Shown: positions 14,750 to 61,000 of the stretch, one piece after another
Layout of the letters: each line of letters starts with the position of its first letter
Position numbering within the stretch: the stretch's first letter is position 1
The notes under the pieces: model-generated
What the model saw: only the letters and a program-made list of their open reading frames with translations
The model's database searches: none
What the model was told of the DNA's origin: nothing
Position numbers and translations under genes: made by a program
Assembly: GCF_030684315.1 (NCBI RefSeq)
Contig: NC_081387.1
Location: 21,570,647 to 21,634,646 of the forward strand
Length of the DNA: 64,000 nt
Reading direction: 5' to 3'
DNA from: Stegostoma tigrinum
Lineage: Eukaryota

Positions 14750-16850
14750 ACCATGAACTTGGTGAAAGGAGATTACTGAAAAGCATAAAGACAGTTTGTA
14801 ACATCTTTACTTAGCACATAAAAATGAAACTAAGGTAAATGTTTGTCACTGAAAAGCAGAGATATGAAAAATTATCGGAGGTAATAATGAAATGGTAAGA
14901 GAAGTTGGATAAATGTTAGCGTCTGTTTACAGTAGAAGGCACTAGCTTCCTGCCACAAACAGATAGGACCCTGAGTATAAAAACTGGAAGGAGATTAAGA
15001 ACTTTGATATCAGAAGACAAAAACTACTGGAACAAGTAGAATCTGACAATTACTCTTGGCCACACGACAACTCTCAAGAGTTATAAAAGAGATTATTGTA
15101 GAGATAGTGGAAGTGATTGCTCTGAATTTCCAGAATTTCTTAGATTTTGGAATGGCCTGATTAGCTTGGAAGTTCTCAAACTGTTCTCAAGAAAGTGGGA
15201 GAGGCTACATGGGGAATTTGAGGCCAGTATGCTGAACATATGTTGCTGGGAAATTGTACAAACCCATTACAAACCCCCATTACTTAATCACCTAGAAATG
15301 CATAGCAAGTCAACAATATTTCACAACAGGGTTATTTTTTTGACAGATATATTTGAGATTTCTTTTTTGGAATAATACTAATACGGTATTGAAACTGCAG
15401 CAGATACAATATTCCCAGGTTTACGATAGGCATGTGATAAGGTCTCAGACAAAAAGCTAATAAGAAAGTTCATTGTTCATGGAGTTGGTAAATTATATAT
15501 TACCCATTATGTTTGACTGAAGGATTGGTTACCAGGGAGCATAGTTGACCTAATTGGGCCATCCTCAGGGCCCTGGCTATGTACACTCTATAGTAATGTA
15601 TCTAAGTGCATTGATGATGCAAAGCAAAATGGTAAGTTAAACTGTGCAGCTGACACAGGGAGGGTAAAAAGAGATATAAACAGGGTAATCAGCACATAGA
15701 CGGGAGGTGAAGTGTAATACTTGCAAGTATGAAATTATTCACTTTCATTGTAAAAATATAAAGATACAATAGGATATTTTAATGGCAAAACTTACAAGGG
15801 TTTCACAGTCATATACAAATGGAAGGGAATTGTCCTGGGAGCCCTCAACACATGGACTGTTCACAGTCTCATAGCATCAGGTCAAAAACCAGGGAGGACA
15901 TGTCCTGTTGATAAGCATATAGAGCTTAAACTAAACCTGTGTACACACCTCCAAACATCGATTGATGAATCAGTAATTTTTCATGATTAACATCATTGGA
16001 AGCACTGAAGTGGTTACCAGTGCGCAATGTACTTTGGGTGGGGGAGTTCAATTTCAATTACCAACAGTATCACTGCTGCACTATGACTGGTCAAACCGGT
16101 CGGGTTAGAACATGCATGGAATAATTTAAACAATTCTGGCTTTCTTATCTAAGCAAAGATTCGTTGACATTGGAGACATTCCAGAGATGCTTAATTTGGC
16201 CGATGCTGGGTGTAGGAGAATTTGATAATGTAGAGAGTTTGAGAGGGTTGGTATTGTACTCATTGGAATTCCAAAGTCTTATTGAAACTTGTAAAATTCT
16301 GATTCTGACTTGGTTTGACATGTTAGCTGTGGAGACATTACTTCCGTATGTGGGGAATCTCGGACTAGAGTGCATAATCTTAGAGTAAGCAGTTGCCTAT
16401 TTAGCAGACAAGGAGGGTGTTTACATCCCAGAGGACAGTGAATCTGTGGAATCCTTCAGCACAGCAGACTATCAAGGTTGAGTCATTAAGGATGACCTAC
16501 TAACCTCATCCCACCTCCTTGACCTGTCCGTCTTCCCTGGACTGATCTATCCCCTCCCTACCTCCCCACCTATACTCTCCTCTCCACCTATCTTCTTTTC
16601 TCTCCATCTTCGGTCCGCATCCCCCTCTCTCCCTATTTATTCCAGGACCCTCACCCCCATCCCCCTCTCTGATGAAGGGTCTAGGGCCGAAACGTCAGCT
16701 TTTGTGCTCCTGAGATGCTGCTTGGCTTGTTGTGTTCATCCAGCTCCACACTTTATTATCCTGAGTCATTAAGGATGTTCAGGTTGAAACAGAAATATTT
16801 TTAGTCAATGTGGGAATCAATATTCTATGCATAAGACCATGAATTCAGTG
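14750..16850 (+). mobile_element. Highly degraded CR1 fragments (interrupted by PLE insertion)
   Basis: Remnants of the RT region and 3' end. Confidence 0.55.
16495..16761 (+). mobile_element. PLE terminal fragment with hammerhead motif and 16 bp TSD
   Basis: Near-identical to 49410-49670; TGAGTCATTAAGGATG at 16479-16494 and 16762-16777. Confidence 0.88.
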
Positions 16851-18479: not shown

Positions 18480-18677
18480 AGCGAGTTTTGAGAAGATTTG
18501 TAGCTCAGGTTGAGGTTCTGGATGTAAGTTACATAAAAAGTTACACAAAAACACATAAATAGAAAGCAGGGCATAACACCAGCGCTTCACCAGAGGCTCA
18601 GTGATGATGTTACCTAGAATAGTGACGAAACGTCTGAAAACTAACCTTCCAGCTCAGCAAGCAAACTTCCATCCAGA
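18480..18677 (+). mobile_element. Short fold-back insertion of a second hammerhead-bearing (PLE-like) family, 13 bp TSD
   Basis: ACTATTAGTGCAT at 18467-18479 and 18678-18690; GTGATGA-T-GTTAC..GTGAC-GAAACGTC at 18601-18634; TTCTGGATGTAAGTT inverted against AACTTCCATCCAGAA. Confidence 0.7.
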
Positions 18678-18844
18678 ACTATTAGTGCATTTCTGATAAA
18701 CAGAGCAGAAGGCTATTTATCTCTGACAACATTTAAAGCATCCACACCTAAAGAATGTGGAAATTTGTAATAGACATTGGTTATACTGGTAGGGAAATAT
18801 ATTATTTCCTATTTTCTCATTTAAGGAGAAAATCCACAAAATAG

Positions 18845-22879: not shown

Positions 22880-25390
22880 TCTTGGAGACAGTAACGACTG
22901 CAGATGCTGGAAGCTAGAGTGTACAGGTGTGAGGCTGGGAAGCACAGCAGGCCAGACAGTGGTTGAGGAGCAGGAAAGTTTACATTTCGGGCCAAAATCA
23001 TTTGTTAGGACTGGGGATGGGAAGGGAAGCCCAGAAATAAATAGAGAGAGGTTGGCTGGGGCTGGAGGAAAGACAGGAGAGATGGTAATATGTGAATATA
23101 GGTAAGGGATTATAGTGATTGACCTATGGGAAATTGGGAGTGGATAGGTGGATAGGAAGATAGGCAGGTTGTGTCAGGTCAGGATGGGGAGGGGCTGACA
23201 TGGGATAAGTCTGGGGGTGGAGGGATTTTGAAGCCAGTGAAGTCAATGTTAAGGTCATTGGGCTGTAATTTCCACAGTGCAATATCAGGTGTTGTTCCTT
23301 CAGTTTAAGTTTGGCCATACTCTGGCAATGGAGGAGGCCAAGAATGGACCAGTCTTTCGGGGAGTTGGAGAAAGATGGCAATTGGAAGGTTGGGTTGGTT
23401 GTTGCATGCAAAGCAGGTGCTCCACAAGCTGGTCCCTGAGTCTGCATTTACTCTCTCCAGTAAAGAGGACCACATTGGGATTAATGAAAGGAACCAATAA
23501 GGTTGGATGATGTGCAGGTAAACCTCTGCCAATTCTGGCAGGATTGTTTGGGGCCTTGGATGGAGGTGGGGGCAGGAGGTCCACCTCTTGCAATTGCAAG
23601 GAGAGGTACCAGGTGTGATGGAGGAATTGGTGGGGAGTGTAAAACTGATGAGGGAATCATGGAATAAACAGTCCTTGTGAAATGTGGAGGGAAATATCTT
23701 TTTGGTGATGGGGTCGGATTGTAGATGGTGGAAATGTTGGAGGATAATGTGCTGGATCCAAAGACTGATGAGGTAGTACATGAGGACTAAGGGGACTCTA
23801 TCCTTATTGTTGTTGGGGAGAGGGAGTTTGAGGGCAAAAGTGCAGGAAATGGACAAGGTGCATTGAGGGCATCCTTAATTACAGAGGATGGAAAATTATG
23901 GTCCCTAAATTAGGAAGATAGTTGGCTTGTCATGGAGTGGAAAGCCTCATGCTGGCAGCAGATGCACTGCAGGCACAGGAATTGGGAGCATTTTTTGCAG
24001 GCGGTGTGGTCGATGTAGCTATGGGAGTCAGTGAGTTTGAAATAGATGTCATTGGTGAGTCGGTTTCCAGAGATGGGTACGGAGAGATCCTGGAAAGGAG
24101 GGAGGTGCCATAAATATTCCAGGTGAATTTGATGGCAGGGTGAAAGGTATTGGTGAAGTTTATGAACTGCTTGAACTTGTGAGCACAAGGCCTCACCAAT
24201 GCAGTCATCACTATAGCGGAGGACGAGGTAAAGGATGGTGCCAGTGTAACGGTGGAAGATGGACTGTTCCACAAATCCTACAAAGAGGTAGGTATAGCTC
24301 AGGCCCATGCAGGTGTCCATGGTCACCTATTGGTTTGTAGAAAGTAGGAAGAGTCGGAGGAGTAATTGTTGAGAGGTCAGCCAAGCAAATGAGAATGTCA
24401 GTGGAGGGGGGCTGTTTGGGCCAATGGGACAGGAAGAAGCAGAAGAAGAAGAAGCCCTCCATGTGTACAGGGACTGTCCATTCCTGGTGACATGAGGTGT
24501 TGGAAGCAGGGGAATTGAAAGTTTTGGAAAAGGTTGAGAGCATGGGTTGTGTCACGAATGTAGGTAGGGAGTTCCTGGACTGAAGGAAAATAATGGTGGT
24601 AGGAGGGCATGAGCTTGGTGGGACAGAAGCAAGCAGAGACAATGGATCGACCAGGGCAGTTGGGTTAGGGATTTTGGGTCGGAGATAGAAATGGCTGGTG
24701 TGGGATTGGGGATCTGTCAAGTTGGAGGCTGTGGATAGACAATCTCCCAAATTGGAAAGATTGTTGATTGTCTGGGAGACGATGGCTTAGTGATTAGAGG
24801 TGGGGTCATGATCAAGGGGCCAGTAGGAGGAGATGTCAGTGAGATGGCATCTCTCCTCAGCACCGTACACATCAGTACACCATTCAACCACCAGCACCCC
24901 TCCCCCTCACTTGCTGGCAGTTTTAATAATGACGTTGGTGTTGGAGCAAAGGGAGCAGAGTGCTGCATGTTCCAATGGAGAGATGTGGAGTATGTGAGAG
25001 GCATGGAGAGATCCAAGCAATTGATGTCACTGCGGCAGTTTGAGATAAGAGGTTGAAGAAGGGTCGGAGGCCAGGTGGGGCATCCAAGAGGATGGAGTTT
25101 GCTGGACATGGAAGAAGGGGTCTTTAGAGGATGGTTGGATTCCCGTTCCAAAAAGAAAGGCACAGAAGTGAACATGGCAGAAGAAAACTCAACATCACGG
25201 CATATGCAGAATTCATTTATGTGTGGGCACAGGGGAATGAAGGTGAGCCATTTGCTGAAGAGTGACCATTTGGCCTCAGTGAGGGGAAGATCTGGGGAGA
25301 TGGTAAATACTTGGCAGGGGTTGGGGCTGGGGCTGGGTGTAGAGCTGGAGCCAGGAATGATGGTGGAGACTTTATCAGAACCGGGTATCC
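22880..25390 (-). mobile_element. Older, degraded long Penelope-like element in the last intron of TRIM gene B
   Basis: Frameshifted fragments HFYLRPKI, MGLSYTYLFVGFVEQ, LRYSDD, RVPLVLMY, GESKCRLRDQLVEHL homologous to the 48-49 kb element. Confidence 0.85.
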
Positions 25391-34720: not shown

Positions 34721-36370
34721 TCTCTTAAATGTGTTTTCGCCAATATCACCCTTTTAGGCCAGATGCTCATAACTCTCTGGGCGAAATAAAAATTCCTCAA
34801 AATCCTCCAAACCTCCAGCTCTTACTATAAAGATGTGCAGCTTAGTTAATAAGCCCTTTACTCTGAAAACTCTCCAAATTTACCCTGTGTACAGCACCCA
34901 CATCTTCATACACCTTAATCTGAACCCTTCTGTTTTTTTAAGGAAAGTAACCCCAGCTTATCAGGTCTTCCTTCATGGCTGAATTGCTTCTGCTCAGGCA
35001 ACATCCTATTGAATCTCTTCTGCACTCTCTCCAGTGCGATCAGATCATTCCTACAGTGTAGCGATGAGGACTGCATACAATACTCCAAATGTGGCCGAAG
35101 TAATGTTTTAATCAGCTCCAGTATAACCTCTGATAACAAAGTGTGAGTCAGAGATGAAGGGTCTAGGCCCGAAATGTCAGCTTTTGTGCTCCTGAGATGC
35201 TGCTTGGCCTGCTGTGTTCATCCAGCTCCACACTTTGTTATCTTGGATTCTCCAGCATCTGCAGTTCCCATTATCTCTGATCACAATTTTAACCCAGGTA
35301 TAACCTCTGTTGTATTGAATGCCTCAACCAATAAACCCGTAGCTACCTTATCTATCTGGCCTGCTGGCTAAAATATCAATGAACATCCACACCAAGGTAC
35401 CTAGGATGCTTTCTACTTCCCAGGGTCCTACTGTACAACTTGTACTTCCTTGCCTTGATTGCACTCCAAAACTTCATTGCACCACATTTTTAAGGATTAA
35501 ATTCCATTTGCCACTGCTCATTACATCTGATCTACTCATCTATACCATCGTGTCCTCTAAGACATTCCTCGTCATGATTTATCACATCACAAATTCTTGT
35601 GTCACCTGCAAAAGTACTGATCATGCTTCGTATATTCACACCTAGATCATTAATGTACAAAACGAACAGCAGTGGAGCCAGCACTGAAACCTTTTATTCA
35701 ATATTCGACCTAGATTTCCAGTGACAAAAATACCCTTCAACCATTGCCCTCTGTTTCTTCCCACTGAACAAATTTTGCCTCCATTTTGCCAAATTGCCCT
35801 TGATCCAATTGCAGCTTAAATTTTTTAACTAGCCTGCCACATGATATCTAGTTTCCTGATTTAGAGCAAACACGCTTTTTGAATAATGGGATCCATTAGC
35901 TGTCCTCTGGTACTCTAAAAATTCTGGACAGAGAGGATATGAAAATTAATGCTAAGCTTGAATTAATATCCTCATTGCCTTTCACAGAAGCCTGGGATAC
36001 AACTCATCTGAGTCTTGGGATTTATCATTTTCAACACTGTTAAAATTGTTAATAGCTCCTCCCTCTCAGTGTTAATAAATTCAAATATATCACAGTTCCC
36101 CTCTGTAATTTCTAGACCTACCTCGTCCTTCTCCGCAATAAATACCGATGCAAAGCACTCATTTAAAACTATATCCATATCTTCTGGTTGCATTAACACA
36201 TTGTTATTTTGATCCTCAAGAGGCCCTCATAGTTCATTGGTCATTCTTGTTTATAAAACTCCTTTGAATTTTCCTTAAAGTTACCCATCAGTGTTTTTTC
36301 ATGTGACCTCTTTACTGTCTTACTTTCTTTTTGAAGCAACCCCCTGCACTTTCCATACTCCTTCATTTCG
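34720..36370 (-). mobile_element. Degraded CR1 LINE
   Basis: LLRPHLEYCMQ..ALERVQKRFNRM; LNECFASVF. Confidence 0.75.
35133..35297 (+). mobile_element. PLE mini-insertion with short inverted stub, nested in CR1, 12 bp TSD
   Basis: GTATAACCTCTG at 35121-35132 and 35298-35309; begins ATAACAAAGTGTG, the reverse complement of internal CACACTTTGTTAT. Confidence 0.85.
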
Positions 36371-42983: not shown

Positions 42984-43336
42984 CAGATCCATCCCATAAC
43001 TTCACCCGGTTCCCCCTGTCTCCTGCCAGCTGTAAACTGATGGGGTTCGGCCTCTGTCACAGGGAGAGAGAAACCAGGTTAACGTTCCGGAAATAAACCG
43101 TGTACCGGAACTGGGAACTTAAAGATCAGCAAGGAGCTCTGTAGGGCTGGGGGAAGAAGGAGGGAGAGAGAAAAACAACAACAAAAGGAGGCTCAATTGT
43201 AGAGCTGGACTTACTGGGTGGAATGAGCTGTGAGCTGCAGGAACCCGGGGACCTCCTGTCTGTCATGTTGCTCCACAGGCGGAAGGTGGCGCTACATGAC
43301 GGTGTTGGCGATGAATCAGTCAGTGGTTCTCAGACT

Positions 43337-43577
43337 GGGCTCAGTGGTGTCTTCCCGGGGGACACCAAACCATTTCACTGCAGAGTCAGTGGTGTCTTTC
43401 CAGGGGGACACCAAACCATGTCACTGCAGGGTCAGTGGTGTCTTTCCAGGGGGACACCAAACCATGTCACTGCAGGGTCAGTGGTGTCTTTCCAGGGGGG
43501 CACCAAACCATTTCACTGCAGGGTCAGTGGTGTCTTTCCAGGGGGACACCAAACCATGTCACTGCAGGGTCAGTGGA
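43337..43577. repeat. 46 bp minisatellite, ~5.2 copies
   Basis: Unit GGGTCAGTGGTGTCTTTCCAGGGGGACACCAAACCATGTCACTGCA starting at ~43337, 43383, 43429, 43475, 43521, 43567. Confidence 0.92.
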
Positions 43578-44169
43578 GTCTATCGGTGGGGGAGCAGAAT
43601 CTTATAATTTCTCCAGAGTACAAATGGGAAAATCATGGTGGTAGCGGGGAGAGAGAATAGGAAAAGTGCAACAAAAGTACCAATGTTGTATAAATGTCCA
43701 GGAGGTTGCATTTTCCTGCATGGTGAGCTGAGTGATCGCCTTTGACATCAAGGCTGCATTTGACCAAACGTAGCATCATTGAGCTCCTTGCAAATTTGGC
43801 ATTGGGGGCAAACTTTCGGCTGGTTGGAAGAAATATGATTGTGTTTGTTGGATGTCAGTCATTTCAGCTCCGGGACATCTCTGAAGGGGTTCCTCACTGT
43901 GGTGTGCTGGGCCCAATCATTTTTAGCTGATTAAAAATGACTTGTCTCCATCATATGATCAGGAGTGAGGATGGTCGTTGACAGTGCACAATGTTCATTA
44001 CTTGTGACTCCTCAGATACTAATGCAGTCCATGTTCAAATGAGACACAATCTGAACAATATCTAGGCTTGGGTTGCCATGTGTCAAGCAACATTTGCAAC
44101 ACACAAATGGCAGGCAATGATCACCTTCAATAGGAGACAGTATAGCCACTGTCCTTTGTCATTCAACGG

Positions 44170-45279: not shown

Positions 45280-46090
45280 TCAAAAAGTGTTGTTGTTTGT
45301 CACATATAGAGGGCAGATCTTCTATGAAACTGTCTCTGAGTCCACACTTGGTCTCACTTGTGTACATGAACCATATCGGGAGTAGCGGATACAGTAGACC
45401 AAGTTGACAGATGTGTAGATGAACCCCTGCCTGATATGAAAGTATTGTTTTGGGCCTTGAATGGAGATGAGGAGGAAAGTGTAGGGGCAAGTGCAGGGAA
45501 AGGCGCCAGGTGTGGTGGGGTTAGTAGGAAGTGTAGGGTGGACGAGGGAGTTATGAAGAGAGCCAGCCTCAACAAACAACACCTTCTGCTCACTAATCAT
45601 TTTAACTTCCCCTCGCACTCCCTGGGCAATATGTCCATTCTAGGTCTCCTCCAGTGTCACAATGACACGACCCACAAACTGGAGGAGCAACACCTCATAT
45701 TCCACCTCAGGAACATACAGTTCGATGGCCTAAACATCGAATTCACCAGTTTTAAAATCTCCCCACCACATCCAATGACCAACCCTCCCTCTCATCCTGC
45801 CTGATACCATCTGTCCATCTTCTCTCCCACCTATCCAGCCACCCAGCCCACTGACCAATCCCCATCACTCCCTACCTGCACTCACTTATCACCATCCCAC
45901 CCACCTTCTCCAGCCCCACCCCTCCTCTCTCTATTTCCCAGCTCCCTTCCCCCTCCGGATTTCTGAAGAAGGGTCTCAATCCAAAACGTCAACTTTCCTG
46001 CTCCTCTAATGCTGCCTGGCCTGCTGTGTTCCTCCAGCTCGACACTGCGTTTTCTCCGGCTCTGGCATCTGCAGTACTTGCTATCTCTGA
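45280..46090. mobile_element. Older PLE fragment with inverted 5' part
   Basis: 45280-45565 is minus-strand GIY-YIG-region sequence; 45570-46090 continues on + strand to the decayed hammerhead (CTGAAGAAGGGTC ~45963) and the 3' end. Confidence 0.75.
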
Positions 46091-46611: not shown

Positions 46612-46872
46612 GATCCTTCTTTATATTTTGTTTTCTAAAATGCTCGTCAGAAACCGAATCCGTTTAGAATTAAGTCCGAGAAGCTAAAAAAAACTAAACA
46701 CGCTGTTTGTTTTATTTGCATATTGGTCCAAATGCTGCATCCTCATGACTCCAGTCCAATTATTATCTGAATGATTTAAAACCTTGAGAATGAAGTCAAT
46801 GGTACCATTCGGCAACAAAATGTGAGGCTGGATGAACACAGCAGGCCAAGCAGCATCTCAGGAGCACAAAAG

Positions 46873-46904
46873 CTGACGTTTCGGGCCTAGACCCTTCATC
46901 AGAG
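46873..46904 (-). ncRNA. Minimal hammerhead ribozyme motif (inverted arm copy)
   Basis: Reverse complement reads CTGATGAAGGGTCTAGGCCCGAAACGTCAG. Confidence 0.7.
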
Positions 46905-49580
46905 AGGGGGATGGGGGGAGGGAACTGGAATAAATAGGGAGAGAGGGGGAGGCGGACCGAAGATGGAGAGTAAAGAAGATAGGTGGAGAGAGTATAGGTG
47001 GGGAGGTAGGGAGGGGATAGGTCAGTCCAGGGAAGACGGACAGGTCAAGGAGGTGGGATGAGGTTAGTAGGTAGCTGGGGGTGCGGCTTGGGGTGGGAGG
47101 AAGGGATGGGTGAGAGGAAGAAACGGTTAGGGAGGCAGAGACAGGTTGGACTGGTTTTGGGATGCAGTGGGTGGAAGGGAAGAGCTGGGCTGGTTGTGTG
47201 GTGCAGTGGGGGGAGGGGATGAACTGGGCTGGTTTAGGGATGCAGTGGGGGAAGGGGAGATTTTGAAACTGGTGAAGTCCACATTGATACCATATGGCTG
47301 CAGGGTTGCCAAGCGGAATATGAGTTGCTGTTCCTGCAACCTTCGGGTGGCATCATTGTGGCAGTGCAGGAGGCCCATGATGGACATGTCATCAAGAGAA
47401 TGGGAGGGGGAGTGGAAATGGTTTGCGACTGGGAGGTGCAGTTGTTTGTTGCGAACCGAGCAGAGGTGTTCTGCAAAGCGGTCCCCAAGCCTCCGCTTGG
47501 TTTCCCCAATGTAGAGAAAGCCGCACCGGGTACAGTGGATGCAGTATACCACATTGGCAGATGTGCAGGTGAACCTCTGCTTAATGTGGAATGTCATCTT
47601 GGGGCCTGGGATGGGGGTGAGGGAGGAGGTGTGGGGACAAGTGTAGCATTTCCTGCGGTTGCAGGGGAAGGTGCCGGGTGTGGTGGGGTTGGAGGGCAGT
47701 GTGGAGCGAACAAGGGAGTCACGGAGAGAGTGGTCTCTCCGGAAAGCAGACAGGGGTGGGGATGGAAAAATGTCTTGGGTGGTGGGGTCGGATTGTAAAT
47801 GGCGGAAGTGTCGGAGGATAATGCGTTGTATCCGGAGGTTGGTAGGGTGGTGTGTGAGAACGAGGGGTATCCTCTTGGGGCGGTTGTGGCGGGGGCGGGG
47901 TGTGAGGGATGTGTCGCGGGAAATGCGGGAGACGCGGTCAAGGGCGTTCTCAATCACCGTGGGGGGGAAGTTGCGGTCCTTAAAGAGCTTGGACATCTGG
48001 GATGTGCGGGAGTGGAATGTCTTATCGTGGGAGACTTCCTACAGACTAAGGGGGTGGCCATGGGCACCCGCATGGGCCCCAGCTATGCCTGCCTCTTTGT
48101 AGGTTACGTGGAACAGTCCATCTTCCGCACCTACACAGGCCCCAAACCCCACCTCTTCCTCCGGTACATTGATGACTGTATCGGCGCCGCCTCTTGCTCC
48201 CCAGAGGAGCTCGAACAGTTCATCCACTTCACCAACACCTTCCACCCCAACCTTCAGTTCACCTGGGCCATCTCCAGCACATCCCTCACCTTCCTGGACC
48301 TCTCAGTCTCCATCTCAGGCAACCAGCTTGTAACTGATGTCCATTTCAAGCCCACTGACTCCCACAGCTACCTAGAATACACCTCCTCCCACCCACCCTC
48401 CTGCAAAAATTCCATCCCCTATTCCCAATTCCTCCGCCTCCGCCGCATCTGCTCCCACGATAAGACATTCCACTCCCGCACATCCCAGATGTCCAAGCTC
48501 TTTAAGGACCGCAACTTCCCCCCCACGGTGATTGAGAACGCCCTTGACCGCGTCTCCCGCATTTCCCGCGACACATCCCTCACACCCCGCCCCCGCCACA
48601 ACCGCCCCAAGAGGATCCCCCTCGTTCTCACACACCACCCTACCAACCTCCGGATACAACGCATTATCCTCCGACACTTCCGCCATTTACAATCCGACCC
48701 CACCACCCAAGACATTTTTCCATCCCCACCCCTGTTTGCTTTCCGGAGAGACCACTCTCTCCGTGACTCCCTTGTTCGCTCCACACTGCCCTCCAACCCC
48801 ACCACACCCGGCACCTTCCCCTGCAACCGCAGGAAATGCTACACTTGTCCCCACACCTCCTCCCTCACCCCCATCCCAGGCCCCAAGATGACATTCCACA
48901 TTAAGCAGAGGTTCACCTGCACATCTGCCAATGTGGTATACTGCATCCACTGTACCCGGTGCGGCTTTCTCTACATTGGGGAAACCAAGCGGAGGCTTGG
49001 GGACCGCTTTGCAGAACACCTCCGCTCAGTTCGCAACAAACAACTGCACCTCCCAGTCGCAAACCATTTCCACTCCCCCTCCCATTCTCTTGATGACATG
49101 TCCATCATGGGCCTCCTGCACTGCCACAATGATGCCACCCGAAGGTTGCAGGAACAGCAACTCATATTCCGCCTGGGAACCCTGCAGCCATATGGTATCA
49201 ATGTGGACTTCACCAGTTTCAAAATCTCCCCTTCCCCCACTGCATCCCTAAACCAACCCAGTTCGTCCCCTCCCCCCACTGCACCACACAACCAGCCCAG
49301 CTCTTCCCCCCCACCCACTGCATCCCAAAACCAGTCCAACCTGTCTCTGCCTCTCTAACCGGTTCTTCCTCTCACCCATCCCTTCCTCCCACCCCAAGCC
49401 GCACCCCCAGCTACCTACTAACCTCATCCCACCTCCTTGACCTGTCCGTCTTCCCTGGACTGACCTATCCCCTCCCTACCTCCCCACCTATACTCTCTCC
49501 ACCTATCTTCTTTACTCTCCATCTTCGGTCCGCCTCCCCCTCTCTCCCTATTTATTCCAGTTCCCTCTCCCCATCCCCCT

Positions 49581-49612
49581 CTCTGATGAAGGGTCCAGGC
49601 CCGAAACGTCAG
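49581..49612 (+). ncRNA. Minimal type-I hammerhead ribozyme motif in PLE terminal repeat
   Basis: CTGATGA-A-GGGTCCAGGCCC(stem II)-GAAA-CG-TC core with palindromic ACGT stem III; PLEs are known to carry such minimal hammerheads. Confidence 0.7.
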
Positions 49613-49724
49613 CTTTTGTGCTCCTGAGATGCTGCTTGGCCCGCTGTGTTCATCCAGCCTCACATTTTGTTGTCTTGGAATCTCCAGCATCTGCAGTTCC
49701 CATTATCTCTGGTACCATTCGGCA

Positions 49725-56650: not shown

Positions 56651-57223
56651 TCCACCACCAACACCCCTTCTTCTCCCTGCCCCCCCCCCCCCCCTCCCCC
56701 GGCACACGCACACGCACACCTGAGTCATCCATGTCAACATGAATAACTGTCTGGGATTGTTGACCTTTTTCCCCTGAAAAATATCCTGACCTCAAGGAGC
56801 ACTCTTTTGCTGTTCAAAAGATTGGCTCTGGGAGCTCTCGCATCGACCTGAGATGGATACAATTTAATTTTGCATCCAAAAGAATGTAGCATCTCTTCAA
56901 AACTGGTTTTGGATTTTTCTGCTTGAGTCTCTGAACTAGAATTTGAAGACCCAACTTTGACAGATTTGCGAATGCTGTTTGCTGATTTGAGACTAAAACA
57001 TGGCATACCACTGTTAGGAAATACTTAGTATTGAGCTTCTGTTGAAATTTTAGGGGAACACTGCTTTTTCATTTGCCAGGCAAGTTGAACTTGTATGTCT
57101 GCTTTGTAATTGCTTACGCCTTTGTCTGTTAATAAATACTTTGCAGTGAACTGAACAATGTGACAATCATGTCCCCTCACACACCACCCCACCCACAACT
57201 CAAACCTAATTAGCTATTATTTA

Positions 57224-57426
57224 GCAATAGTAGGAACTGCAGATGCTGGGGAATCTGAGATAACAAGGTGTAGAACTAGATGAACACAGCAGAATGAGCA
57301 GGAAGGCTGATGTTTCCGGCCTGGACCTTTTCCTGAAGACAGGTCTAGACCCGAAACGTCAGCCTCCCTGCTCCTCTGATGCTGCTTGGCCTGCTGTGTT
57401 CATCCAGCTCCACACCTTTGTTATTC
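57224..57426 (-). mobile_element. PLE fold-back mini-insertion, 13 bp TSD
   Basis: TAGCTATTATTTA at 57211-57223 and 57427-57439; two opposed hammerhead-region halves meet near 57330. Confidence 0.82.
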
Positions 57427-57850
57427 TAGCTATTATTTAATTTGGTTTGGGAAATTCAGTTTTAATTTATTCACGTGTGTCACTGATTAGTTGTTGTCCT
57501 TACTTAATTGATCTGGAGAAAGTAGTGGTGCATTGCATTTTAGCTGTCACAGTCCACATTGTACAGGTATAATGGTCGAGGGAGTGACTGTTGAAGTTGA
57601 TGGATGGGCTGCTCTTCAAGTAGGCGGCTTTGTTCTGTGTGGTGTCCAGCACCAGCAGTGTTGGCTGCATTTTACAAGCAATTGGGAACACCTCTGTCAC
57701 ATTCCTGTGCTGTGTAGACAGTGAACAGGCTTTGGGGAGTCAGGAGGTGTCTTATCTTCGCATTTTTGCTTTTGTTATGCCTATTTCAAGCTCGCAGTTT
57801 TATTAACAACTTGTGAGTTGAGCTACCAGACAGAACTTCTATTTGGTTGA

Positions 57851-58007
57851 TGAAATGTGAGGCTGGATGAACACAGCAGGCCCAGCAGCATCTCAGGAGC
57901 ACAAAAGCTTTTGTGCTCCTGAGATGCTGCTGGGCCTGCTGTGTTCATCCAGCCTCACATTTCATTATCTTGGATTCTCCAGCATCTGCAGTTCCCATTA
58001 TCACTGA
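57851..58007 (+). mobile_element. PLE fold-back mini-insertion containing a perfect 116 bp palindrome, 14 bp TSD
   Basis: 57850-57965 is a perfect palindrome centred on AGCT; TTCTATTTGGTTGA at 57837-57850 and 58008-58021. Confidence 0.9.
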
Positions 58008-61000
58008 TTCTATTTGGTTGACCTTTGCTAAACATCAGAATTTAATTTTATGTAGCCATTTCGGTGCACTGAGGAATCATTTGTTTTGGCGGATGTATTT
58101 TAAGTATGGGATTCTGCATTGCGAGAATGTACCTAAAGATCAGCAATTTTGCATAAGATGTAAAGTAGTAACAGCCTCCCAATTAATATGCAGACCACCG
58201 CAAAACAATCTGTTGTCTTCCTATTGGACTTTGGGGGCATTTCAAGAGACATGCCTCCAGTGGCTTTTATCACCTGCACTAGTCTCAATTGATGAAGTAT
58301 TTTTACGTGCACAAATAAAGCTGTTCTGCAGGGAGTGTGGATCTGACGGAAAGTTTCCATGAGGTTGTCTCTTGGCCCTTCCATTTAATTCAGTTACATT
58401 TATTTTATTTAATTTGTGGCTGGCAATATTAGTCAAACAGAAACACTCAATTGCTTTGTCCAGAAAGCATCTTTTTTGGATGAAGCTGGTTAGTGCTTCT
58501 GCTCTGTTGGAATCGTGGTTCTTCTGCAATTTGTTTATACAGATGATCTTTTGTGCTAAAAATCTAACGGACAAAATAACACAAACCACTTTCTCTTTTC
58601 ACTGTCCGCACCCTGCTGATTAAGAGTGCAATGCCTTGGGTGAAAGTCCAACGCATTTGTCTGTCTGTGCTTTGTTTTAAAATATACAGTGGCCTGATTA
58701 GTGTGGAACTGCACCACTGCTGTATATTCTCAGCAGAGTGATCTGCTGTGAGCTGGCTTCTGATTCCTAATTCCTGGGGATGCCTGAGCCTCCTTTTATA
58801 CTGCACAGCCCGAAACCTTCTGTTTTCTGTCTTGCTTGTGCTGAAATGGGAGTTTTAGACAAATTTGGCTGGAGAGGTGTAAGAAGAGGAAAAGATTCAG
58901 TGCAAATTTAGTAAATAAGGCAGCCAATTTGGGGCACATGTGGTACGTAAGTTGGGAGAAATTGCTTTTTATGGTACAATGGTTCTGAGCACAGCTATTA
59001 TGAAAATGTGGCTCAAGAAAAAGTAGCAATGACAGTACAATGTTTCTGGCTAGAATGTCTGCAGATGTGATTAGAGATGATGGGAAAAGAAAAAGAAAGA
59101 CCTAATGAAAATTATGGCTTAAAGAAAGAAATACAAAATGTAATGTGAAAGGAGCATCATATGAATTTATATGGTATAAACTGAGGAGCAAATCACACTG
59201 CCAGGAATATACTACCTTGCCTCAAACAGTGATATAAAGAGTGGATAGAAAAACAACTAAGTGGCTGAACAATAAATTCTCCTAATATTAATAGGATAAA
59301 TTTATAAGTGGTATAAAGTATGCAGACATGTTAAAAGGTCTTTCGACTTTTAAGTTAGCACGTTACAAACTCAGTGTGTTCTGGACTTGGGTTTTAAGGA
59401 ATGAAGCTGGGTGGGTGGATGGGCTTAAGAGGTAAGATTTGATAGGCGGATTTTTTTTCTTTTAAAACATGAGATTTCATTTGAAGTATAAACCAGTGGC
59501 CTAGAATAAGTCGGGAGTTCAAATGACAATGTGGATAGCATCCCAGCCTCTGAACCAAAGACCCAGTTTCAAATCCCACTGCAGGACTTTGATGGCCAAG
59601 GCTGGTGCCTTAAAATCATGAGCAATCAAGCTGTAAACCCTTTAATTCACTCTGCCAAGCTAAAGGAGTGGGAAAGTTTCTTTCAGTCATTCGGCAAGAG
59701 GCAATAGCAAACCACTATAGTGGCCTGCCAAGCATAAGCGTTGACTATGTAAAATGGAAATCTGCAGCTCCAAACTGCGAGAGGAAGATAATTAAAAACA
59801 AGGGAAGTCTTTCTATCAAGTTCGGTTAGCCTTTTGTCCTAATTGCTTGTTGACTGAGAGGCAACTACTGGACAGGGAGAGCTAGCCATGCACCTCTTAA
59901 CGATTTGTCTGAGATCATTTGTGCCCACCTGAGAGGGTCTTTTGGCTGATTGCTTCATGTGCAAGATCAAAGGTCAGTATTTGCAAAATAAACATGCATA
60001 CAATGGTTTTCCTGTCATTACTAAGTCAACCATGAAACACAGGTGCTTTCACTAAATAAGCTGTAGTGTACAAATTGAACTCTCTTGCTGCATCATGGAA
60101 TTTGGTAGAGGGTTGAAATTTGTTCGGGTGGCGAAATGTAGTTGGGGGCTAGTGCGTGTGAGGTGTTGACTAATTTACAAGGGGGTTTTGCAATAAAACG
60201 AAACCTCTTTTTCTATAAGGCACAAAAACACTTCCTATTCCTTCAGTGTCCTAACTTGATTTCCCACAAGAACATAAGTTGCACCTGTTAGTTTTGACAA
60301 GCTTAATTCTCTACTGGGTTTAGCAGTTTTCCATTTAAGAGTTAAATGCTTGAGGCATGGTTTGTTCTTTCTTAATTACACCTTCACCATCCTAATACGA
60401 TAATCAGCTGTATTGAAGCAGGAAAAACAAAGATCTCTGCAACCTTCTAAGTCTTGAATATCTCTAACTTTATTCACTTGACTGTGTCCAACCAGTTTTT
60501 CAGCCGCCTTAGCAATACCCTCCACAGTTTACTACATACATTTCTCTGCCTTCTTGGATACAGAAGAGATAATCTTTATTTGACCAAGCTTTGAAAAGCA
60601 ATCTCAAGTGCCTGGGCATAGTGCTTTGTTTTGATTATCACTTCTATAGAGTTGAATACTCATGACATGGCCCAGATGTAATGGGAGATGGCCAAAACCT
60701 TTCTGCTGGGGACTAAGCTATTACAATTATTTCCAGGTGACTCTTCATGTTTGAAATTTGACCATTTTGAAAATTGAAAATATTCACATTTAAAATGTCG
60801 ATAGAATCTCTAAATCTCATTGTTATATTTGGAACCACAGAGTTCAAAATATTGGTTGTTATTTATAGACTGTGCAGCAATGAGTATCATAAGCTGTTTC
60901 CTGTGCGCAGCCACAGTTCAGTAGGTCTCAAATTCACATTTGCCTCGTGCAGTCAAACAGTTGGATTTTGTTAAGCACTTTGGGAGAAAGTGGTATTTCA

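Follow-up and report, generated by a model that had tools for sequence, protein, structure and literature searches.

Anatomy of the insertion at 57837–58021

The window analysed here is a 64,000-nt stretch of the Stegostoma tigrinum genome (RefSeq assembly GCF_030684315.1, contig NC_081387.1), and at 57837–58021 it contains a small insertion of about 158 bp that has no ORF. Positions in its family are numbered from +1, the first base after the family's GAAACGTC, i.e. after the predicted GUC cut. The insertion, hereafter the stub, is made up as follows:

57837..57850, plus strand: left copy of the 14-nt target-site duplication; its last base is also the end of the arm
57850..57909, minus strand: inverted short arm, family +1..+60, outer end without a tail
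57906..57909, no strand: AGCT common to both arms, family +1..+4; the axis falls between 57907 and 57908
57906..57965, plus strand: forward arm, family +1..+60; G at +27, CA at +58/+59 and all other bases agree with the inverted arm
57966..58007, plus strand: one-sided tail, family +61..+102, 42 nt
58008..58021, plus strand: right target-site duplication, the first base of which may also be family +103

The two halves (57850–57907 and 57908–57965) are 58 nt each, 100% complementary and spacerless, and form the mismatch-free 116-bp palindrome with a flanking duplication that a sequence-only reading had described; in 20 shuffles of the window, the longest spacerless arm was only 7–10 nt. The 14-nt target-site duplication is the direct repeat TTCTATTTGGTTGA, present at 57837–57850 and 58008–58021, and the final base of its left copy (57850) is also the outermost base of the left arm. 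The forward arm and tail cover +1..+102 and the inverted arm +1..+60, with AGCT common to both, and both arms are readable up to +1. Both also carry a G at +27 that is missing from the eight other window copies compared. The catalytic core of the hammerhead, described as absent, was indeed missing from the stub by alignment. The apex had also been placed exactly at the predicted cut, and here the description needs amending: the halves mirror each other about AG|CT, an axis displaced by 2 nt in the 3' direction from the predicted scissile bond (GTC|A), and it is the furthest reach of each arm that coincides with the bond, a reach made ambiguous by the 4-nt overlap.

The stub is a dead insertion of a Penelope-like retroelement (PLE), with the published layout of an inverted 5' arm and a one-sided tail of about 42 nt. 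EN+ PLE insertions are reported to consist of an inverted, 5'-truncated copy and a tail of 30–40 bp (Craig et al. 2021, PMC8557442; Arkhipova et al. 2013, PMC3846280). In the available portions of these two papers, the insertions share with the stub the head-to-head arms, the one-sided tail, the target duplication and the palindromic inverted junction, and their junctions are not related to the cut site. The stub differs from them in its size of about 158 bp, in being ORF-less and spacerless, and in that both arms reach the predicted cut. A MITE or DNA transposon was ruled out by the one-sided tail and by the origin of the arms from a retroelement end. A non-LTR retrozyme, described as tandem units with a type I hammerhead in each (bioRxiv 10.64898/2026.07.22.740005), was likewise ruled out: the stub is an inverted pair without a core, not a series of tandem core-bearing units.

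The parent element

No full-length copy of the family lies inside the 64-kb window. The longest young copy (48036–49714) forms part of a larger two-armed insertion and bears a truncated ORF:

46800..49724, no strand: large sister insertion with a 15-bp duplication; inverted arm to +61, forward arm to +101
48036..49358, plus strand: parent-element ORF, 5'-truncated, with the C-terminal half of RT, a CxxxxCxxC linker and GIY-YIG

Pfam matches of the ORF were weak (RVT_1, E 0.015–0.059; GIY-YIG, E 1.5e-4 and 22.5 bits, just under the cutoff of 22.6). The ORF had 213 homologs of at least 710 aa at E ≤ 1e-20, many of them with PF00078 and some with PF01541. A Pfam search at 1e-3 and a PDB sequence search gave no match, and scans of viral, metagenome and prokaryote collections with family patterns gave 0 matches. 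The linker that joins RT to EN reads CNRRKCYTC, matching the pattern CX2-5CxxC, which is given as a Neptune/Nematis feature (PMC8557442). The RT and GIY-YIG domains, the inverted truncated copy with its tail and the hammerhead motif in the terminal repeat are those of an EN+ PLE, and the family is probably of Neptune (or Nematis) type, judged from the linker.

Other repeats were noted in the window. Two older PLE copies, about 67–73% identical, lie in pieces at 45384–46089 and 22928–24345, the former with a head-to-head junction near 45562–45570. A tandem array with a 46-bp unit occupies 43306–43591.

The predicted minimal hammerhead

A loose core scan of the window found seven family copies with a hammerhead motif in the terminal repeat. 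The reference motif is:

49583..49610, plus strand: minimal type I hammerhead with CUGAUGA, a bulged A, a 4-bp stem II and GAAACGUC; predicted cut at 49610/49611

It also has a palindromic ACGU in helix III and a helix I of 2 bp. AGCT immediately follows GAAACGTC in the core-bearing copies with +1 at 16697, 46512, 46874 (minus strand), 49611 and 2211 (minus strand); the copy with +1 at 35179 has AGCT too, after GAAATGTC. The earlier observation that AGCT directly follows the GUC triplet was thus confirmed, except in three older copies that have AAGC, AACT or AGCC at +1.

The motif fits the published minimal type I hammerhead, with self-cleavage after GUC as a prediction. Pairing was present in 91.2% of 68 cells, against 4–49% in slid controls; 13 of 500 shuffles reached the same level, and two-sided covariation was almost nil among 11 related rows. 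In common with published minimal hammerheads, the motif has the CUGANGA core, a bulged base before stem II, G10.1–C11.1 and a palindromic ACGU helix III suited to dimers. The 2-bp helix I is as in the D. virilis variant, and stem II has 4 bp compared to 6–8 in the published examples. An Rfam search gave no hammerhead match. It did return mir-2756, a microRNA precursor, at 54.8 bits (below the gathering value of 61), a match that reflects the hairpin described below. A match to snR75 (E = 1), probably spurious, falls on the hammerhead-like motif of a second family at 18600–18700 (GTGATGA...GAAACGTC|TG), which has a longer stem II.

In the predicted RNA, a hairpin spans −28..+2 (−11.4 kcal/mol, 84% of the ensemble), with its foot at +3. 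In the best predicted monomer fold the core pairs with −4..+2, so that the monomer would sequester its core and be inactive, in line with the published requirement for a dimer or for protein. PLE minimal hammerheads are described as having low or protein-dependent activity in vitro, and published work on minimal hammerheads states that in vivo evidence is absent.

Outer and inner ends of the two-armed insertions

Four two-armed insertions are present in the window, at 35121–35309, 46800–49724, 57211–57439 and 57837–58021, with target duplications of 12, 15, 13 and 14 nt, respectively. One of them is a close neighbour of the stub:

57211..57439, no strand: older two-armed stub with a 13-bp duplication, arms joined near −22..−32, core kept

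The short arms end at +63 (35133), +61 (46813), +63/64 (57426) and +60 (57850), so that all four fall within +60..+64, whatever the inner junction. The long arms stop near +101..+103, with one exception about 15 nt further (35121–35309), and the tail is about 42 nt across the four. These two sets of ends fit two RT start sites that bound the tail, and the fixed end of the short arm is what separate priming of the two arms predicts. In the insertion at 35121–35309, the inverted part consists of two tiny pieces (+63..+49, then about −25..−31) and the forward copy starts at −26.

The sister insertion at 46800–49724 is young. Its arms are cut at unequal depths, about −1160 and −1575, and show 15 differences in 1221 nt; the frame is open in the forward arm across the C-terminal half of RT and GIY-YIG. 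Eleven inner ends were readable in the window after exclusion of two old, fragmented copies: five lie at −22..−32, four further upstream, and two at +1. Both of the latter are arms of the stub.

Joints and 5' ends in public contigs

Contigs of four public runs were aligned to 49380–49714. No RNA run was among the 19 runs listed, which has no bearing on expression. One of the runs, X1, is from the same species as the window and was counted in part. Among the best 12 of 129 joints (Table 5c), eight leave an RT start site, and six of these eight arrive at 49611, i.e. at +1. They start from 49666, 49667, 49668 (two joints) and 49711 (two joints), with depths of 41–216. The letters that separate the two sides continue the family sequence in five of these joints (CAT, ATT, ATTA, A, ATA); the sixth has a G there. 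Since the joining letters continue the family, the upstream end varies (about +59..+62, +102 and +104) while +1 is constant. The joint with ATT is ambiguous by one base.

The remaining two joints from RT start sites in Table 5c arrive at −116 and +63. One of this pair (49711 to 49673, depth 243) returns from the end of the tail to about +60; the tail itself is apparently duplicated in tandem here, with the two RT start sites as its limits. The four listed joints that do not leave an RT start site are a deletion, two joints at +3/+4 and one from X14. The two at +3/+4 (49613/49614 to 49579) are linked to −32 with one extra G, which might have been copied from the cap if the join is head-to-head. 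Among the 15 of 55 entries listed in Table 5, two joints start at the end of the tail and lead back to −23 and +6, each supported by seven contigs. Pooled over the entries listed in both tables, six of ten joints fall on +1, or five of ten without the ambiguous one. Five of ten corresponds to P = 6e-9 against an end uniform over 133 positions, and to 4e-6 over 36.

We read the six +1 joints as tandem restarts; Table 5c does not give the kind of joint, and if they join opposite strands they still fall on the predicted scissile bond. All six come from one sample (X1), and some may share ancestry. The symmetry of AGCT gives them no help. Joints at exactly +1 in contigs of the same species thus provide independent support for a cleaved template.

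The most common loose 5' end among those listed lies just before 49582 (−29), in at least 733 contigs of X1 and 195 of X14. This is the 5' edge of the hammerhead, immediately before the predicted ribozyme, and it is probably a transcription start at −29/−30. The position +1 was not among the 24 loose ends listed in Table 7 (six per run, with 1000 more beyond). With the dominant 5' end before the ribozyme, cleaved templates would be a minority. Assembled contigs probably cannot run far past a spacerless apex, and the survey therefore does not count palindromes.

Origin of the palindrome

The apex by itself is only weakly informative. Besides AGCT at +1, the region from −16 to +28 has four more self-complementary 4-mers, at −16, −13, −5 and +28. 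The centre of the stub is reproduced exactly by a template end at +1 if the overlap is 4 nt, at +2 if it is 2 nt, and at +3 by a blunt join. Because AGCT offers a natural microhomology and an RT stop at +2 or at +3 would be equivalent, cleavage is not provable from the stub alone. The proposal that the template was the 3' product of cleavage is therefore ambiguous at this locus, and draws its plausibility from the family joints at +1.

From the anatomy of the stub, its family, the fixed outer ends and the family joints at exactly +1, we infer twin priming, annealing of the products, and cleavage as the cause of the +1 ends. On balance we lean towards a twin-primed insertion in which at least one template was likely the 3' fragment left by the predicted hammerhead cleavage. 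The element protein would nick both target strands 14 bp apart, and the RNA would be copied twice, with the outer RT start site (+102/+103) used for one cDNA and the inner site (+60) for the other. Synthesis of each cDNA would run off the 5' end of its template at +1, so that the 3' ends would read ...AAAAGCT; the two ends would then anneal through the self-complementary AGCT (−4.8 kcal/mol for the AGCT/AGCT duplex), and fill-in would generate the palindrome. Alternatively, a single cDNA ending at +1 might pair with AGCT inside the other, followed by trimming of the flap. Most templates would start near −30, and a minority would be cut at GUC|A. The helix I of only 2 bp, the best monomer fold with its sequestered core and the two joints at +3/+4 speak against a cleaved template.

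Twin priming could also have proceeded from uncut RNA with a 5' end at about −30, the AGCT join being ordinary microhomology, or a blunt join at a +3 stall, and the match to the cut site incidental. Such an origin is possible but rather unlikely in our view. It agrees with the dominant 5' end at −29 among those listed, with the five of eleven inner ends at −22..−32 in the window, and with the choice of self-complementary 4-mers and the centre recreated by +3 ends; the foot of the predicted hairpin at +3 is a place where RT could stall, and cleavage is reported as dispensable in vitro for the element of the anole (PMC11167929). However, uncut RNA does not predict six microhomology-free joints at exactly +1 rather than +3, and it requires both cDNAs to lose about 30 nt, so that three self-complementary 4-mers closer to the end are passed over.

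The sequence-only reading had instead favoured a single cDNA from the cleaved RNA that folded back at AGCT and copied itself into the second arm. This would account for the identical arms and for the G at +27 common to both and missing from the eight other window copies, and palindromes at PLE inverted junctions have been published as self-priming events (PMC3846280). However, 58 nt of identity would be expected about half the time at the divergence of the sister insertion, and the G at +27 would also be expected from two transcripts of one source locus. Folding in register requires a loop of 2 nt, which the DNA energy model does not allow (an untemplated base could rescue it), self-copying gives no reason for an arm end at +60 that matches the other three two-armed insertions, and the arms of the sister are unequal in depth, with 15 mismatches over 1221 nt. 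The fixed short-arm end (four of four) and the forbidden loop thus favour two target-primed cDNAs, and we regard snap-back as doubtful.

The lowest probability goes to a secondary origin, in which a longer inverted stub like that at 57211–57439 lost its centre by slippage between AGCT words, or the assembly folded back on itself. By sequence logic, head-to-head arms do hold AGCT twice in the same orientation, flanking the inner inverted repeat, and the stub is known from the assembly alone. Against this, loss of the spacer from a palindrome is a step in the less stable direction, and the intact 14-bp duplication, the family-typical end of the short arm and the tail all speak against an assembly fold-back. 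Either event would leave the +1 joints elsewhere unexplained, and we consider both very improbable.

Comparison with other elements and implications

A close comparison is with the Poseidon element PAc of Anolis carolinensis, for which two RT start sites are reported to bound the tail, both target strands are nicked and extended in vitro, and cleavage is protein-assisted in vitro, yet dispensable there (Frangieh et al. 2024, PMC11167929). An AT-rich target is common to PAc and the family of the stub, as probably are two RT start sites and extension of both strands, and the cut falls at a similar distance from the ATG in the core, about 26 nt after it in PAc and, as predicted, 25 nt here. The available text of that paper describes a search for RNA-seq ends at the PAc cut site that found none, whereas here genomic joints fall on the predicted cut. 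The family described here also differs from PAc, as presented there, in its CxxxxCxxC linker of the Neptune/Nematis type.

In R2, an HDV-like ribozyme sets the template's 5' end, and with it the 5' junctions in the genome (Eickbush et al. 2013, PMC3774820). R2 and the stub are alike in joining through chance microhomology, as far as that paper's available sections go; R2 has a different ribozyme and is a different class of element, with cleavage obligatory there and apparently confined to a minority of templates here.

The type of insertion represented by the stub is already known, as are ribozyme-defined 5' junctions in R2. In the literature searched, which had most subscription journals outside its reach, we found no link between PLE junctions and the hammerhead cut. 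The stub pairs a known architecture with what is plausibly a trace, kept in the genome, of a minimal ribozyme cleaving in vivo. The idea of such a footprint, already raised in the sequence-only reading, gains its plausibility from the +1 joints and is weakened by the start of most short copies near −29. That the hammerhead of this family cuts in vivo at all seems quite likely to us, and we are more confident of this than of cleavage at the stub locus alone. We would also give a fairly good chance to a broader proposal, in which germ-line RNAs of vertebrate PLEs are cut by their minimal hammerhead and the 3' piece continues to serve as template, so that RT runs off at +1 and the end either anneals or restarts. 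A restart at an RT start site would yield short tandems, and annealing with the cDNA of the other strand would yield a palindrome.

Arkhipova et al. read the palindromes at inverted junctions as self-priming on an antisense template (PMC3846280); as the source of inverted PLE ends, the stub favours twin priming at two RT start sites rather than self-priming. The role of minimal hammerheads in PLEs has been called unclear (PMC8557442), and junctions fixed at the predicted scissile bond would be in vivo evidence for their cleavage. The question is testable from assemblies alone, with subfamilies that have a non-palindromic word at +1 as natural controls. If cutting in the germ line is true, copy-rich genomes would provide a fossil assay for the activity of the ribozyme, precise to the base and readable for each subfamily.
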